A DNA stretch of 63,061 nucleotides from an uncultured Clostridia bacterium (GCA_944390695.1 CALXQP010000009.1:1-63061), one strand, 5' to 3'. Shown: positions 4,078 through 44,653, counted from the first letter of the stretch. A program made the numbers and translations. The notes: generated by a model not told the origin, from the letters alone.

Positions 4078-6003
4078 ATGGGAAAAATAGGAGTATATAA
4101 AAAAAATCAAAAAGGTTTTGGTTTTGTTAAATTAGAAGACCAAGAAGATGAAATATATATTGCAAAAGAACATTCTTTGAATTCTTTAAATGGAGATGTA
4201 GTAGAAGTTGAAATTATATCTCCTAAAAGGGAAAATAAAAAAGAAGAGGGTAAAATAATAAGAATTGTAAGACATGAAAAAGATACAATTGTTGGAACTT
4301 TCCAAAAAAATAGAAATTTTGGTTTTGTAGTTCCAGATGACAAAAATTTTGGGACAGATATTTTTATTTCAAAATCAAATTGGGGAAAAGCAAGAAATAA
4401 ACACAAAGTTTTAGTAAAAATAATTAAATACCCTGAAAGGGGAAGAAACGCTGAAGGTGAAATAATCGAAGTTCTAGGAGGAGTTAATGAAGCCGGTGTT
4501 GATATGTTATCATTAATAAAACAATACGAACTTCCATATAAATTCCCTGAAGAAGTAGTAAATGAGGCTAAATCATATGGAACAACTATTGATGTAAATG
4601 ATATATCTAATAGAGTTGATTTAAGAAATGATGTAGTTTTTACAATTGATGGAGAAGATGCAAAAGATTTAGATGATGCAATACATGTGGAAAAACTGTC
4701 TAATGGAAACTATAAATTAGATGTTCACATTGCAGATGTGAGTAATTATGTTAGAGAAAAAACTGAACTTGATAAAGAAGCATATTTAAGAGGGACAAGT
4801 ATCTATATGTTAGGCAGAGTAATTCCAATGCTTCCAAGAGAACTTTCAAATGGAATATGTAGTTTAAATGCTGGTGAAGATAGATTTACATTATCTTGTT
4901 CTATGGAAATTACTCCAAAAGCCAAAGTTGTAAATTCAGATATTTACAAAGCTGTAATAAGAGTTACTGAAAGAATGACTTATACTAATGTGCAAAAAAT
5001 ATTAGATAAATCAGATGATGAAGTTTTGAAAAGATATGAAAAATATATTAAAGATTTTGAATTAATGGCAGAGTTAGCAAATATTTTAAAGGAAAAAAGA
5101 AGAGAAAATGGATATTTGAATTTAGATATTCCTGAGACTAAAGTAGTTCTTGATGAAAATGGTTTTGCAATAGATATAAAAAAATATGAGACTTATTTTT
5201 CAAATGAAATAATAGAACAATTTATGCTGATTGCAAATGAGACTGTTGCAGAGAAGTTTTATTGGTTACAAGCACCTTTTATTTATAGAAATCATGAAGC
5301 TCCAGGTTTAGATAAAATTAATGAATTAAATAAGGTTTTATTTAATTTTGGTTATAAAATAAAAGTTTCTCAAGAAGATATAGTTTATCCAAATGAATTT
5401 GCAAAGATTTTGGAAGATGTAAAAGGAAAAGAAGAAGAAAAGGTAGTTTCTCATATTATTTTAAGAACTCTTAGAGTTGCTAAATATGAAGCGGAAAATA
5501 AAGGACATTTTGGTATTGCGAGTAGGTATTATTGCCATTTTACTTCTCCTATTAGAAGATATCCAGATTTATTTATACACAGAATTATTTCAAAATATTT
5601 GGAAAATGATTATTTTGTAAATGACTTTTTTATTAAAAAATATTCTAAAAGAGCAGCTAAAAGAGCTGATAATTGTTCTGAAAGAGAGAAGATTGCAACT
5701 AAAGTGGAAAGAGAGGCAATTGATATAAAAAAAGCTGAATTTATGGAAAATAAAATTGGTGAAGAATATGATGGAATTGTTTCTTCTGTTACCAGTTTTG
5801 GAATTTTTGTTGAACTTGATAATACTGTTGAAGGATTAATAAGATATGAGAATTTAGGTGATGAATATTTTATTTATGATGAAGATAAAAAACAAGCTAT
5901 TGGAGAAATCTCAAATAAAATTTATAAAATAGGTGATAAGGTTAAAATAAGGGTTTTAGATAGTAATAAACTATTAAGAAAAATAGATTTTGAAATTATT
6001 TAA
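4078..6003 (+). CDS. rnr: Ribonuclease R
   Basis: Has an N-terminal cold-shock-like GFGFV domain, the RNB catalytic region (FTIDGEDAKDLDDAI, HFTSPIRRYPD) and a C-terminal S1 domain. Start is ambiguous (4048, 4066 or 4078). Confidence 0.9.
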   Translation: MGKIGVYKKNQKGFGFVKLEDQEDEIYIAKEHSLNSLNGDVVEVEIISPKRENKKEEGKIIRIVRHEKDTIVGTFQKNRNFGFVVPDDKNFGTDIFISKSNWGKARNKHKVLVKIIKYPERGRNAEGEIIEVLGGVNEAGVDMLSLIKQYELPYKFPEEVVNEAKSYGTTIDVNDISNRVDLRNDVVFTIDGEDAKDLDDAIHVEKLSNGNYKLDVHIADVSNYVREKTELDKEAYLRGTSIYMLGRVIPMLPRELSNGICSLNAGEDRFTLSCSMEITPKAKVVNSDIYKAVIRVTERMTYTNVQKILDKSDDEVLKRYEKYIKDFELMAELANILKEKRRENGYLNLDIPETKVVLDENGFAIDIKKYETYFSNEIIEQFMLIANETVAEKFYWLQAPFIYRNHEAPGLDKINELNKVLFNFGYKIKVSQEDIVYPNEFAKILEDVKGKEEEKVVSHIILRTLRVAKYEAENKGHFGIASRYYCHFTSPIRRYPDLFIHRIISKYLENDYFVNDFFIKKYSKRAAKRADNCSEREKIATKVEREAIDIKKAEFMENKIGEEYDGIVSSVTSFGIFVELDNTVEGLIRYENLGDEYFIYDEDKKQAIGEISNKIYKIGDKVKIRVLDSNKLLRKIDFEII

Positions 6004-18345: not shown

Positions 18346-19071
18346 TTATTTTTCGCTTTTTTCTTCTTTTTTCCATCCTTCTAAATTTCTTGAAATTGCT
18401 CCAAATAAATTTGCCCTAATCATAGGAATGTCTTTTTGCCATAAAAAGATTTGTTGTTTTATTGATTCTCTTTTTGTGTGTTCATCCATTGGGCAAACTT
18501 TTGGCATAATTGTTTTGTTATTTTTTTTGACAAAACGATTAGCATCTTTTTCACTTAATAAAATTAAAGGTCTAATTAATGTAATTTTACTTCTATCCAT
18601 ATAACTTTTAGGTGCAAATGTGTGTAAACTACCAGTATATAATAAATTTAGTAAAAATGTTTCTAATACATCATCCATATTATGCCCAAGTGCAATTTTA
18701 TTACATCCTTCGCGGATTGCTACACTATTTATTATTCCTCTACGCAAGTTGGCACATAGAGAACATGGATTTTTTTCTTGTCTTACATCAAAAACAATTT
18801 CTTTAATATTACTGTTTTCAATAAATAATGGAACACCAATCTCATCACAGTTTTTTTGTAAAATTTTTGTATCAAAAAATTCGAATCCAGGATTTATTGA
18901 TATTGCGATTAAATCAAAATGTTTTGGGTAGAATCTTTGTAATGCTTTTAAACCATTTAACATTGTGATTGAATCTTTTCCTCCTGATAAACATACTGCG
19001 ATTTTGTCTCCATCTTCTATCATATTATATTCTTCTATTGCTTTTCTCATTTTACTTAATATTTGTTGCAT
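18346..19071 (-). CDS. ttcA: PP-loop ATPase, tRNA 2-thiocytidine biosynthesis TtcA-like
   Basis: 241 aa with the SGGKDS PP-loop and the CSLCANLRRG cysteine motif. Confidence 0.8.
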   Translation of the reverse strand: MQQILSKMRKAIEEYNMIEDGDKIAVCLSGGKDSITMLNGLKALQRFYPKHFDLIAISINPGFEFFDTKILQKNCDEIGVPLFIENSNIKEIVFDVRQEKNPCSLCANLRRGIINSVAIREGCNKIALGHNMDDVLETFLLNLLYTGSLHTFAPKSYMDRSKITLIRPLILLSEKDANRFVKKNNKTIMPKVCPMDEHTKRESIKQQIFLWQKDIPMIRANLFGAISRNLEGWKKEEKSEK

Positions 19072-19323: not shown

Positions 19324-19399
<76 letters not shown>

Positions 19400-20634: not shown

Positions 20635-20774
20635 ATCTGGAAAGAACAAATTTGTATGTAAATAGTATTTTTAATTATTTTATAAAGAAGTGTGCATTTA
20701 ATATTGCAATGCCTAAATTAGATAAAATGCTAAAAAATACTTGCAAAATTCATTATTACATTATATAATAGCAA

Positions 20775-20917
20775 TGGTATGAATGTTGACCTCTGTATGG
20801 AAAACAAACTCAATAAAAGTCTATGAATCTTGTCAGGTCCGGAAGGAAGCAGCAATAAGTAGAGCCTTTTATGTGGGAATTGTTTTCCATAGAGAGATTG
20901 ACAATCACACCATTTTT
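20775..20917 (+). ncRNA. ffs: Signal recognition particle RNA (small, 4.5S/scRNA-like)
   Basis: Conserved domain IV motif GTCAGGTCCGGAAGGAAGCAGC is at 20832-20853. A long closing helix pairs 20776-20806 with 20881-20911 and is followed by a T-run. Position upstream of dnaX is as in Bacillus. Ends are approximate. Confidence 0.8.
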
Positions 20918-27805: not shown

Positions 27806-27937
27806 AATTTATTAAAAAAATTGTGGCAAAAATTGAAAAAATAAAATTTCGAATTTTGTTAATAATATATTTGAAATAATTAATTAATTATTTCAAGCGG
27901 TCCGTAAAACAGATAAATTTGGAAAGGAGAGGCTATT

Positions 27938-28117
27938 ATGTCTAAAGGAAACAAATTAATATCTGAAAACTTACGAACAGAAATAGCAAAAGAATTAGGT
28001 GTTTATGATCAAGTAAAAAGAGATGGCGGAAGTTGGGAAAATGTATCATCTAAAACATGTGGAAGTATAGTTTCAAAAGCTATAGAAATTGCAAACAGAG
28101 CAGTGGAAAATCAATAG
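27938..28117 (+). CDS. Small acid-soluble spore protein, alpha/beta type (59 aa; below the ORF-track cutoff)
   Basis: Hand translation gives MSKGNKLISENLRTEIAKELGVYDQVKRDGGSWENVSSKTCGSIVSKAIEIANRAVENQ*. The EIAxELGV motif and the G-rich second helix region fit alpha/beta SASPs. A GGAAAGGAGAGG RBS and a strong downstream terminator are present. Confidence 0.75.
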   Translation: MSKGNKLISENLRTEIAKELGVYDQVKRDGGSWENVSSKTCGSIVSKAIEIANRAVENQ

Positions 28118-28148
28118 TTTTTAGATATGCAATGATAATTGATATTTT

Positions 28149-28192
28149 AATACCAGAATCTATGTATTGTAGATTTTGGTATTTTTCTTTTT
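28149..28192 (+). terminator. Rho-independent terminator after the SASP gene
   Basis: 13-bp stem ATACCAGAATCTA/TAGATTTTGGTAT followed by TTTTTCTTTTTT. Confidence 0.75.
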
Positions 28193-28231
28193 TGATTTAA
28201 ATAAAGTTTTAATATTTTTATGAAGTCAATT

Positions 28232-28608
28232 CAAACTTCCAAAGTTATAACTTTCACGCCCAAAATACTTGCTATTCATTACGTAAAAAAGAGAATTTAA
28301 TCTAAAAAACGAGTTTCTTTCGGAGTTTGCCATAATCTTTATATATTTTTGAATAAATTTCTCGGCTACCCGCCGTAACGTTAACAAATTCTAATGCAAA
28401 AGGCACAACTATACCCGAAGACAGGACCCTTTATGCCTTTTGCTTAAGAATTTGTAACACTACTCTGGTCACACTCGTAATTTATTTAAAATATATAAAG
28501 ATTATGGAAAATTGCTAAATATTCCTCTATTTTTGAGTAATATTTTCTACTTTTTACTCCAATAAAACACATGGATTTTGGAGTGAGAGTTATAGCTTGG
28601 GAAACTTG
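28232..28608. repeat. ~377-bp nested foldback palindrome containing the ~125-nt core element (core 28355-28480)
   Basis: The structure is symmetric about 28420. Arms 28232-28259 and 28581-28608 match 22/28 as inverted repeats, and arms 28330-28359 and 28478-28506 are also inverted repeats. The central hairpin is at 28380-28458. The core recurs reverse-complemented at 43657-43782. Confidence 0.8.
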
Positions 28609-28706
28609 AGAGGGTTTCAAAAAAATACCAAAATTTAAATGATTTTATTCTTGCCAAAAATAAAAAATTAGAATATAATAAGAAAAATTCATTTTGGGGG
28701 TAAAGT

Positions 28707-41047: not shown

Positions 41048-41167
41048 TGTTATAGGGAATGTTGAAAACTCAAATTAGGTAAATAAATACTGGTAAAGTT
41101 ATTTTTTTGTATAAATTTTTTGAAATTGTCCAAAATAGATATATAATTTAAAGAAAGGGTGATTTTA

Positions 41168-41356
41168 ATGGCAGATTTAACTCAAGCAGAGTTACAACAT
41201 TTGAGACATTTAATTGGAGCACATGAAACTGCATATCAAAAATTAAACACATATGCATCACAAGTTCAAGATGCTCAAATTAAGCAAATGTTTACAAAGT
41301 CAGCACAAGATGCTTTGAATACAAAACAAAAATTAATGGGTTTTTTAAATAATTAG
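41168..41356 (+). CDS. Small hypothetical protein paired with the CotF-like gene (spore-coat associated?)
   Basis: 62 aa from ATG 41168, 9 nt after AAAGAAAGGG. Forms a tight pair with the next ORF. Confidence 0.5.
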   Translation: MADLTQAELQHLRHLIGAHETAYQKLNTYASQVQDAQIKQMFTKSAQDALNTKQKLMGFLNN

Positions 41357-41372
41357 TAAAGGAGAGATTTTA

Positions 41373-41621
41373 ATGGATGAAAAAACAATGGTAAATGACA
41401 TTTTAGGAAACGTAAAAGCAGATTTAACTGCATATCAAACTGCTATAACAGAATCAGAAAATATGCAATTAAGACAAACATTTCAACAAATTAGAAATAA
41501 TGATGAATGTTTTCAATATGAATTATTTAAAGTAGCAAACGCTAAAGGATATTATAAGCCAGCACAAAAGGCTACGACTACGGAAATTGAAACTTTGAAA
41601 ACAGAATTACAACAAGGATAG
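41373..41621 (+). CDS. Spore coat protein F-like (Coat_F domain)
   Basis: 82 aa. VNDILGNVKADLTAYQTAITESENMQLRQTF resembles the CotF-family motif (..YxxAxxExxNxxLR..). Confidence 0.65.
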   Translation: MDEKTMVNDILGNVKADLTAYQTAITESENMQLRQTFQQIRNNDECFQYELFKVANAKGYYKPAQKATTTEIETLKTELQQG

Positions 41622-42891: not shown

Positions 42892-42927
42892 AAAAAATTC
42901 TAGGGAAATTACCCTAGAATTTTTTTA
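42892..42927. terminator. Bidirectional terminator shared by the M23 peptidase gene and mecA
   Basis: AAAAAATTCTAGGG-AAATTA-CCCTAGAATTTTTTT. Overlaps the mecA stop codon. Confidence 0.75.
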
Positions 42928-43495
42928 AACATTTAATAATTGCATCTTTTGCAAAAATTTCTTTACCATATTCATTTAGAATCCCATCAATTTCAATTGA
43001 ATTTGAAAGATCTTGACCGAATTCTGCAAAAAATGGTTTCATATAATCTAGTATTATAGAAAATATTTTTACATCTAATGCTTTTAAATAATATGTATTT
43101 TTATAAATAATTAGAGAAAAAATTTTGGAAAAATCTTTTAAGTCTAAATGTGGAAAGTTTTTTAAAAATGCACATAAATATACGAAATTATCAAAACTAT
43201 CAAATTTAAAAATAAAAGAATTATAATTATTATTTATATCTGTTTTTTGTGTGTAGACTTTTGTTATTGTAAATTCACATTCTGCTGGTGTTGGCATAAT
43301 TGCTTCTACAAGTAAATTTGAATCTCCAGGTTTAAATCCTAATTCAGATTCTGCTTTTTCTATAATTGACTCAATTAATTCTTGAGCTTCTTCAGAATTT
43401 GATATTATGCTTTCTGCTGATATATGGTTTGATTCCATATCTTTTAATGTAAGTATAACTTTTATTTTTACATCATTTAATTTTTCAAATTTCAT
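42914..43495 (-). CDS. mecA: Adapter protein MecA
   Basis: 193 aa. The MKFEKLNDVKIKVILTLKDM start and overall layout match the MecA adaptor family. Confidence 0.75.
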   Translation of the reverse strand: MKFEKLNDVKIKVILTLKDMESNHISAESIISNSEEAQELIESIIEKAESELGFKPGDSNLLVEAIMPTPAECEFTITKVYTQKTDINNNYNSFIFKFDSFDNFVYLCAFLKNFPHLDLKDFSKIFSLIIYKNTYYLKALDVKIFSIILDYMKPFFAEFGQDLSNSIEIDGILNEYGKEIFAKDAIIKCLKKF

Positions 43496-43580
43496 TTGTA
43501 AACCTCCACGACTTTTATAAATATATTATACTATGATTATTGATATATTTAAAGACACAATTTTTGGTAAAAAAGATTTG

Positions 43581-43856
43581 TTTAATTAATAATATTATAT
43601 TTATCCTTACCCATGTCCCATTTGATTTCCATCAATCATTACATATTTTGAACAAGTTACGAGTGTGACCGGAGTAGTGTTACAAATTCTTAAACAAAAG
43701 GCATAAAGGGTCCTGTCTTCGGGTATAGTTGTGCCTTTTGTGTTAGAATTTGTTAACGTGACATAGGGTAGCCGAGAAATTTGTGAAAAATATGTAATGA
43801 TTGATGGAAATCAAATGAGGCATGGGTAAGGATAAATATAACATTATTAATTAAAT
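43581..43856. repeat. ~276-bp foldback palindrome containing the second copy of the ~125-nt core (43657-43782, reverse orientation)
   Basis: The arms at 43581-43650 and 43786-43856 are near-perfect inverted repeats. The structure is symmetric about ~43718, which is the same 28-nt loop as the 28.4-kb copy. Confidence 0.85.
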
Positions 43857-43951
43857 AAAAAAGTTTGGATAATACTTGAAAAAAACACAAAATCAATATA
43901 TAATAATGACACGGTATAGGGGGCATTCAAAATTAGAAAGGAATGAATCGA

Positions 43952-44653
43952 ATGCCTATAAAAATGAAAGAATTACCAGAATCTGAAAGACCATATGAAA
44001 AATTAGAGCAATATGGTGAAAAAGTATTAACAAATGCAGAATTACTTGCAATAATAATAAAAACAGGTACTAAAGAAGAAACCGCTGTTGGGTTAGCACA
44101 TCAGATACTAAAATTGAATAATAAAAAAGAAGATAACTTAAGTTTTTTAAGAGAATTGACAGTAGAAGAATTTATGAAAATAAAGGGAATAGGAAAAGTA
44201 AAAGCAATTCAATTAAAAGCAGTATGTGAGCTAGCAACGAGGATGAATGTAATAACAAATTATAAAGATAAACAAATATTAAAACCAAAAGATATAGCAG
44301 AAATACTAATTGAAAAAATGAGATTTGAAAAACAAGAGATATTAAAAGTTGCTATGTTAAACAATAATAATAAATTGCTAAAAATAAAAGATATTGCTAG
44401 AGGAGGCTCTAATTTTGTAAAGGCAACAGTTAAGTCAGTATTAAATGAGGCTGTAAAAATAGAAGCTTCAAAAATAATATTAATACATAATCATCCAGGA
44501 GGAGATCCAACTCCGAGTAGGCAAGATATAGAATTTACTCGAAATATTGAACAAGCTGCAAAAATATTAGAGATACAGTTATTAGATCACATAGTAATTG
44601 GAAATACAAATTATGTAAGTATTTTTTCAGAAAGAGAAAAAATATTAAAATAG
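43952..44653 (+). CDS. radC: RadC-family JAB-domain protein
   Basis: Has the PRERL-like start ELPESERPYEKL, an HhH segment, and the JAMM motif ILIHNHPGGDPTPSRQD. Confidence 0.9.
   Translation: MPIKMKELPESERPYEKLEQYGEKVLTNAELLAIIIKTGTKEETAVGLAHQILKLNNKKEDNLSFLRELTVEEFMKIKGIGKVKAIQLKAVCELATRMNVITNYKDKQILKPKDIAEILIEKMRFEKQEILKVAMLNNNNKLLKIKDIARGGSNFVKATVKSVLNEAVKIEASKIILIHNHPGGDPTPSRQDIEFTRNIEQAAKILEIQLLDHIVIGNTNYVSIFSEREKILK

Follow-up and report, generated by a model that had tools for sequence, protein, structure and literature searches.

The foldback between mecA and radC in a 63,061-nt stretch of an uncultured Clostridia bacterium (GCA_944390695.1 CALXQP010000009.1:1-63061; hereafter, the window) is probably a structure of two layers. 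The inner layer is a dispersed, mobile and transcribed hairpin unit, and the outer layer would be a DNA palindrome that is made locally by template switching and flips. The original prediction offered a choice between selection for the hairpin and homogenisation of its arms by templated repair. Both hold, but for different parts of the element: the core appears to be selected, and the arms appear to arise by templated DNA copying. What goes beyond that prediction is a dispersed, mobile and transcribed family with locus-specific arms, the flip of the whole foldback and a probable presence/absence polymorphism. Only two copies had been at hand, so that the family, the variation of the arms and the flipping could not have been seen.

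The mecA/radC foldback is 283 bp long. Its two inverted arms, 82 nt each, are complementary at 75 of 82 positions (91%) and are spaced by 119 nt (Table 1). The near-perfect inverted repeats first reported at 43581-43650 and 43786-43856 are therefore real, with arms that reach slightly further. The inner stem comprises 25 nt (43682-43706/43729-43753). Folding z-scores relative to shuffles are −19.6 on the plus strand and −19.4 on the minus strand, with fold energies of −144 versus −122 kcal/mol, the plus strand being more stable because of G-U pairs. The gene names given earlier are also right, since the ORF at 42914-43495(−) matches PF05389 MecA and that at 43943-44653(+) matches RadC. Other neighbours are a Peptidase_M23 protein and Coat_F. 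The foldback occupies the gap between divergent, outward-facing promoter-like sites of the two genes and sets these promoters ~300 bp apart. The site between them is presumably near-neutral.

Table 1. Features of the two foldbacks in the window (positions counted from the first letter of the window)
Feature	Position	Strand	Basis and remarks
Left arm	43577..43658	.	Inverted-repeat search, 75/82
Left arm, outer ~54 nt	43577-43630		Single-copy, specific to the mecA/radC locus; depth profile 13.8 in outer arm and flanks
Left arm, inner ~28 nt			Part of the dispersed unit; depth climbs to 650 in the core
Core hairpin	43659..43777	+ (sense here)	Covariance-model match 43652-43783, 145 bits; covariation; strand asymmetry; landmarks: conserved asymmetric loops CGAGUGUGAC ... 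GGUAGCCGAG, apex AAAGGGUCCUGUCUUCGGGUAUAGUU
Right arm	43778..43859	.	Outer end resembles 23 nt of the probable empty allele
High-copy dispersed unit (core and own short stem ATATTTTGAA.../...GAAAAATAT)	43631..43800	+	Depth bounds
mecA promoter-like site	43525..43553	−	TTTAAA-17-TATAAT, just beyond left arm
radC promoter-like site	43876..43904	+	TTGAAA-17-TATAAT, just beyond right arm
Copy 1, core	28354..28485	− (sense)	Covariance-model match, 149.7 bits
Copy 1, decayed outer arm	28202..28359	.	Pairs with 28479-28637
Copy 1, other decayed outer arm	28479..28637	.	

The ~125-nt core of this foldback (copy 2) recurs on the opposite strand as copy 1, in agreement with the core noted earlier near 28.4 kb, and the covariance model finds only these two copies in the window. 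They have an identical 42-mer in common (0 expected by chance). All the compensatory differences that had been quoted between the copies are found on alignment. A central-stem pair is A-U in one and G-C in the other, and the inner arms differ in a compensatory way (ATCAATCATTACATAT/ATATGTAATGATTGAT versus ATAATCTTTATATAT/ATATATAAAGATTAT). Similarity between the copies stops at the bounds of the dispersed unit given in Table 1. The arms of copy 1, 159 nt long, pair at 120/163 (74%) and are perfect only over the inner ~20 nt. Together with these decayed arms, copy 1 makes up most of a 900-nt intergenic region (27806-28706), downstream of which lies a 462-aa ORF, probably murF. Thus, an old foldback can explain this unusually long spacer.

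Covariation in the core was examined with more copies and is confirmed. The covariance model was built on 24 distinct cores, which score 97-159 bits. RNAalifold folds 17 copies into a single long hairpin, and 94.9% of the cells of the core alignment (17-24 copies) are paired. Double changes are found in 29-30 of the 49 core pairs, compared to 15.5±2.3 in column shuffles (0/500 reach this number) and at most 16 in slid controls. Over the 25 inner pairs in 24 copies there are 48 G-U pairs versus one A-C, and all 24 copies fold better as the sense strand (mean −42.7 versus −28.4 kcal/mol). Such an asymmetry is impossible from a process acting on double-stranded DNA, suggesting selection on one single strand. 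Most likely, the core and its own short stem are selected as a single-stranded RNA hairpin; DNA-level homogenisation could in principle also inflate the covariation counts of the core. Conservation is highest in the apex and in the asymmetric internal loops, where 5′ CGAAUGYGAC lies opposite 3′ GGUAGCCGAG and UUUGAAU opposite AUGAAAA. Covariation beyond the controls, strand-specific wobble and a transcript are thus found in the same element, as in structured non-coding RNAs generally.

The core belongs to a dispersed ~160-nt unit present at 30+ loci in uncultured gut Clostridia. Scanning with a 20-mer from the apex, a query that skews the sample to one subfamily, yielded 18 loci among the GTDB species genomes, all belonging to MAGs of uncultured gut Clostridia (hosts: mouse, goat, sheep and human), each MAG having 2-4 copies, and 10 further loci in metagenomes. 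MAG and short-read contigs break at the element; hence these per-genome copy numbers are lower bounds. The covariance model also detects a diverged subfamily copy in L023 and L025. The organism of the window lives in the chicken gut. The region 43657-43786 has a contig depth of 400-750 in chicken-gut runs, versus 7-14 for the flanks and outer arms, and in runs X1 and X6 the depth climbs from ~14 to 100-750 inside ~43631 to ~43800. According to this profile, the ~160-nt unit is a high-copy repeat of the community, over-represented 40-50-fold in chicken-gut metagenomes, and each arm is single-copy over its outer ~54 nt. One contig with the element (L011, NZ_JAZUMY010000039.1) is labelled as a Methanobrevibacter MAG. 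It is 73% identical to a clostridial gene of the window (18360-18809) and is probably mis-binned.

The hairpin repeat has apparently not been described so far. At the gathering thresholds of Rfam 15, the only matches in the window are tRNA and SRP RNA, neither of them at the element, and permissive E-value scans of the element and six other loci returned only sub-threshold matches to miRNA precursors, that is, to generic hairpins. The 15-mers of the core are absent from the literature searched, and no described hairpin repeat of Clostridia matches. Around the copies examined there is no mobilising gene. The neighbours are housekeeping genes, and at the loci scanned with Pfam the only recurrent neighbouring protein families are those of orthologous housekeeping genes. 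The term mobile therefore rests on presence/absence and copy number. We conclude that this is an interspersed element of low-GC gut Clostridia that is, or recently was, mobile.

Some copies are composite. Three elements of one genome (L007, L009, L018) have ~360 nt in common, old arms included, and the 306-nt unit of L025 has a second copy with different outer arms. In these and the other composites (L007/L009/L018, L010/L027, L024, L025), older arm layers and conserved asymmetric modules have been copied along. The internal loop of module 2 is asymmetric and conserved, with GAGCCUCUUUCAC on one side and GUGAACAUUCCUC on the opposite side. Module 2 is carried by L007, L009, L010, L018, L021, L024, L025 and L027 and is absent from the window copies; its CCUC motifs are similar to the anti-Shine-Dalgarno sequence at the 16S rRNA 3′ end. 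L013:2884-3152 and L009:3933-4413 represent an orthologous site, whose flanks have 83-89% identity in the blocks that align. The core at L013 belongs to a subfamily; at L009, the base of that core surrounds a newer, oppositely oriented core, indicating that one element is nested in the apex of another. Another composite copy, of 533 bp, lies upstream of the SRP RNA gene in a mouse-gut relative (L010:6764-7548) that is syntenic with the window at 19.4-21.2 kb, where the window has a plain 160-nt spacer (20635-20795) upstream of its SRP RNA (20796-20894). L010 and L011 were considered as filled counterparts of empty sites in the window at 20.6 kb and 18.2 kb, respectively, and were set aside, being too diverged for exact junctions.

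A search for transcripts, proposed along with the original prediction, was positive: the core is covered by metatranscriptome and RNA-seq contigs, which, as assembled contigs, are strand-blind as to the transcript. Contigs on the L025 element (4634-4958) come from pig gut (X25-X27), cattle (X29) and another gut study (X31). The element has a depth of 51 in a 34-Mb run, versus 0 for the flanking genes. The contigs extend into the arms, so that the arms are transcribed too. Some of them run on into a different, also palindromic, outer arm, so that a second copy is expressed as well. In the chicken-gut RNA-seq run X40, one contig consists of a 134-nt insert between two adapters, the insert being the core plus 10 nt. 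It is closer to copy 1 of the window (28360-28483), with 2 mismatches, than to copy 2 (43652-43777), with 9. Among the RNA runs indexed, none represents copy 2 itself. RNA would be the form in which the core is selected.

The outer arms behave differently from the core. Inverted arms flank every copy, and their sequence and length (30-116 nt) depend on the locus; they are nearly perfect in L002 (74/74), L017 (79/80) and L014 (111/116). Their mismatches show no preference for the sense strand (G-U 43, A-C 78), and there is no consistent terminal sequence, target motif or direct target duplication at 27 copies. The long outer arms appear to be the result of templated copying at the DNA level and not of selection on RNA pairing. 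C-rich motifs recur in the arms of different species, and variable stem segments lie between the conserved modules of composite elements, so that in many arms some of the sequence is carried along by the element and does not arise at the site. We also considered whether the arms are captured foreign, spacer-like DNA. This idea was rejected, as neither the arms nor the unit match viral contigs or the phage and plasmid collections, the databases being limited. Hypermutation of the arms was rejected as well. At the orthologous site of L003 and L006, the locus is 92% identical and the arms are ~71% identical between the species, versus 86-92% within each element, where changes in one arm are mirrored in the other. 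The arm divergence of ~29% is close to the silent-site expectation at 92% overall identity and corresponds roughly to a neutral rate combined with homogenisation, without the need for hypermutation.

The whole foldback also occurs in both orientations. In four other assemblies of the window species (L029-L032), with MecA 99% identical, the mecA/radC foldback is inverted. There, the core reads as its reverse complement, the mismatches of the arms are found on the opposite sides (GTCCC/GAGGC becomes GCCTC/GGGAC), 11 nt are missing from the left outer arm, and the flanks are identical to those of the window. Since the mismatches that changed sides are not within the longest perfect stretch of the arms (31 nt), the flip is not a graph mis-join. 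Flipped contigs of this site are found in runs X6, X10, X11 and X13, and the window form in X1. The strains also differ in the left outer arm (window 43582-43596) by an indel of 11 nt (TTAATTAATAA) and by substitutions close to it, which together look like a single templated conversion. The arms of the window are more alike than those of L029-L032, L031 included.

A check for strain-to-strain variation in the presence of the element had been proposed for this site. The orientation flip is clear, but an empty allele is only probable, represented by one contig in one run: an 80-nt contig of X7 (depth 9.8) joins 43570 to 43871 via 23 other letters, which match the right arm only loosely. Two further joints, 43536->43869 (X4) and 43496->43952 (X1), were distrusted as empty alleles, since their short sides have a likeness of 85%. 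In a second species, a single locus has three forms in six samples (L025:4570-5003, L008, L022, L023, L026, L028). Form S is the full 435-nt foldback, and forms R and L are one-arm deletions in which the same 117-nt arm is missing and the core has opposite orientations. TTAA is found at both ends of form S. The deletion junctions of the two one-arm forms are nearly identical (TTAAT/TCAATCTG and TTAAC/TCAATCTG), for which the template-switch model gives no explanation.

The origin of the arms can be traced at a filled/empty pair. Filled L025 and L023 and empty L008, L026 and L028 belong to one species, with flanks 97-99.7% identical. The filled allele has a 171-nt insertion with a diverged subfamily copy, and its left flank is intact. 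The order in the empty allele is ..TTAATTATTTT / TTGGGCTTCTTGGTAT / TATTTTAAAA / TATTATAC.. and that in the filled allele is ..TTAATTATTTT / TT-CAAGAAGCCCAA-GAAATATAAGG..unit..CTTATATTTC / TTGGGTTTCTTGATAT / TATTATAC... On the right, native TTGGGCTTCTTG is retained; on the left, the filled allele alone has the reverse complement of this sequence, CAAGAAGCCCAA. The flank duplication is thus inverted, not direct, at this one clean pair, which involves a diverged subfamily copy and 13 nt that are demonstrably native. Insertion into a pre-existing palindrome was rejected, since the empty allele of L028/L008 has no palindrome at the site. An exception is the nesting into the apex of an older element, which does occur (the L013/L009 site).

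Three other sites fit arms made from native flank. The arms of L017 hold the last 36 nt of a CorC/CNNM-type coding sequence, whose C-terminus aligns with a homologue, and the arm sequence has its mirror image in the final 17 nt of the convergent gene. At this locus (L017:7094-7382) the arms overlap both convergent 3′ ends, such that mirror copies are formed by the final 12 codons of the CorC/CNNM-type gene and the final 5 codons of its convergent partner; one of the two gene ends has probably been rewritten by arm growth. The arms of L014 fill exactly the gap between two convergent stop codons, and those of L003/L006 include the tail of the upstream terminator.

A snap-back of the replicating strand is proposed to account for these arrangements. 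The nascent strand, having copied the hairpin, would snap back on itself, copy the neighbouring flank in reverse and then rejoin the template. The product would consist of flank L, T as an inverted copy, the unit, T in its native form and flank R, and this order, L/rc(T)/U/T/R, is what foldback of the nascent strand, back-copying and return to the template would yield. Later template switching (or recombination) between the arms would homogenise them, could lengthen them and would invert everything enclosed, so that the element would be found in either orientation across strains. Arms that escape switching would decay, as those of copy 1 may have done, or lose one side. Clustered arm-matching changes (window versus L031), inversion, the copied flank and the mirrored divergence of L003/L006 are all traces that template switching is expected to leave.

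Other explanations have to be weighed against this two-layer reading. It is unlikely that the element is a chromosomal family of non-coding RNA genes, in which the whole rod-like hairpin is functional, pairing of the arms is selected and inversions are neutral side effects. Discrete RNA contigs do reach into the arms of L025 while the flanks are silent, and strong covariation and conserved asymmetric loops extend to modules 2 and 3 of the composites. However, wobble in the arms lacks the bias seen in the core (43 G-U versus 78 A-C, as against 48 versus 1), decay has brought the arms of copy 1 down to 74%, forms with one arm deleted survive in populations, presence/absence is polymorphic within a species, and the chicken-gut RNA insert contains the core only. 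Slightly less probable still is a conventional MITE, that is, a palindrome transposing as a whole, in which the arms are terminal inverted repeats that a transposase from another locus would bind, appearing unique owing to low per-genome copy number and fast evolution. The ~360 nt common to L007, L009 and L018 with old arms included, the second copy of the 306-nt L025 unit with other outer arms, the C-rich motifs recurring across species and the TTAA at either end of form S would all fit a MITE. On the other hand, conservation is lowest at the termini and highest at the apex, opposite to that of a MITE, and the 27 copies have neither a consistent terminal sequence nor a direct target duplication. 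Moreover, the outer arms are single-copy by depth, the filled/empty pair places pre-existing flank DNA in an arm, and there is no transposase in 29 loci.

An inverton, in which mecA and/or radC would be regulated by flipping of the segment through a site-specific recombinase, is very unlikely. Both orientations are indeed present in natural populations, at the mecA/radC site and at a second locus in another species, and the element sits between two divergent promoters. Nevertheless, the inverted repeats differ at each locus, arguing against a common recombinase site, and no recombinase gene adjoins any locus examined. The invertible part holds no promoter-like site, both flanking promoters point away from it, and a flip alters little, given that the segment within is close to a palindrome. 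Chimeras are known to arise from palindromes, and contigs assembled from short reads end at the element. Even so, there is hardly any chance that the foldback is an assembly artefact, be it a foldback chimera or an inverted repeat misoriented by the assembler: the same structure, with imperfect arms, is present in at least five independent assemblies from different pipelines (the four others of this species included) and in at least eight public runs, mismatches beyond the 31-nt perfect stretch swap sides with the core in the flipped alleles, and the family is conserved over many MAGs. We see a small chance that the unit is a SINE-like retro-element or another RNA-templated mobile hairpin and/or has a cellular RNA role via its conserved loops. 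In that case, the abundant structured RNA would serve as the intermediate of transposition. Copying of this RNA would be primed by a DNA 3′ end, located at a fork or nick, and the hairpin-shaped product would snap back and copy the attached flank, giving an inverted target duplication.

The two-layer reading finds a close parallel in quasipalindromes. It is known that template switching makes the arms of inverted repeats alike, turns their spacers round, extends the repeats and gives rise to changes that look compensatory (PMC8604942, PMC8794818, PMC13100816, PMC5941160). Multi-nucleotide arm homogenisation, spacer inversion, inverted-repeat expansion and unselected, compensatory-looking substitutions (see also PMC7202029) have their likeness here, and an intra-strand switch and return predicts the order L/rc(T)/U/T/R, as found. 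Unlike in quasipalindromes, the seed here is a conserved, dispersed and transcribed 160-nt unit and not a short inverted repeat arising by chance, the arms reach 80-116 nt, and both orientations are common population variants in bacteria.

In lifestyle, the element resembles REP/REPIN, ERIC, Correia/NEMIS, BOX, RUP and stem-loop families (PMC2267715, PMC3733652), which are likewise short, non-coding, intergenic and multi-copy, form long hairpins, are transcribed together with adjacent genes or close to them and are present in some strains but not in others. The architecture is different. Conservation peaks at the apex and internal loops instead of the termini, there is no direct target duplication, the boundaries have no GTAG/CGTC tags, no RAYT or IS partner was seen, and each copy has its own palindromic arms. 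REP/REPIN elements are defined by a REP of 20-40 bp with a GTAG or CGTC tag, an inverted doublet and a single-copy RAYT gene flanked by REPs. In the loci scanned there is no RAYT-like ORF, and the unit is a single hairpin of 125-160 nt rather than a doublet of short REPs. The inverted repeats of a classical MITE would be conserved at the termini; here, the conserved part is central and a direct target duplication of fixed length is absent. A search of 29 loci (up to 14 kb each) and of the Pfam-scanned neighbourhoods revealed no related autonomous IS whose ends match. PATEs derived from IS200/IS605 have distinct subterminal hairpins on the left and right and insert 3′ of a fixed tetra- or pentanucleotide without duplication, whereas the present element is a single continuous hairpin and has no common boundary motif. 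We therefore file it as a bacterial interspersed hairpin repeat with a REP/ERIC/Correia-like lifestyle and a different architecture, coupled to template-switch dynamics.

The cwpV switch of C. difficile (PMC2784873), an inverton, is also a segment bounded by inverted repeats and found in both orientations. Here, both orientations are observed as well, but there is no conserved recombinase site common to the loci, no cognate recombinase adjacent to them and no internal promoter or coding switch, and the segment is near-palindromic. The hairpin termini of parvoviruses and poxviruses have flip and flop forms, their imperfect palindromes existing as two inverted-complement forms. In foldback priming and inverted duplication at DNA ends (PMC10622511), a hairpin primes back-synthesis on its own strand and yields an inverted duplication, as proposed for the present element. 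Those DNA-end systems involve chromosome breaks or linear ends and large duplications or telomeres, whereas the element here is internal and small and would return to the template. A structured RNA template and inverted junction sequence, made by back-copying at the 5′ end of the template, are also known from the snap-back of R2 in target-primed insertion (PMC11331408, PMC11371274) and from retron ncRNAs. In contrast to R2 and retrons, no reverse transcriptase is linked to the copies examined, with no such ORF beside either window copy or in the loci scanned, and RNA-templated insertion is purely hypothetical here. What seems new is that the seed is a conserved, dispersed and expressed element, that insertion is accompanied by an inverted and not a direct flank duplication, and that both orientations, and probably an empty state too, coexist in natural populations.

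If the two-layer reading is true, uncultured gut Clostridia of chicken, pig, cattle, sheep, goat, mouse and human harbour an abundant, uncatalogued repeat/RNA family. It would be a natural bacterial case in which the seeding of palindrome growth by a hairpin, concerted arms and flipping can be followed allele by allele. It would also be direct evidence at the population level that template switching makes apparently compensatory change, which calls for caution in covariation-based RNA discovery. Inverted target duplication would be unusual among bacterial repeats and may indicate replicative or RNA-templated spread. In practical terms, such elements break short-read assemblies, create orientation and length polymorphism between housekeeping promoters and can rewrite the 3′ ends of genes, as in L017.

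Nearly all large ORFs of the window are on the plus strand, which fits a core chromosomal region. A tRNA-Arg(CCT) is located at 19324-19399, and the SRP RNA mentioned above is of the small type and is followed by a 567-aa ORF, presumably dnaX. Two small ORFs of 65 and 82 aa lie at 41159-41621, upstream of the Peptidase_M23 gene. The second of these has a match to Coat_F, a spore-coat protein family, in contigs of the same species, suggesting that the organism of the window is probably a spore former.
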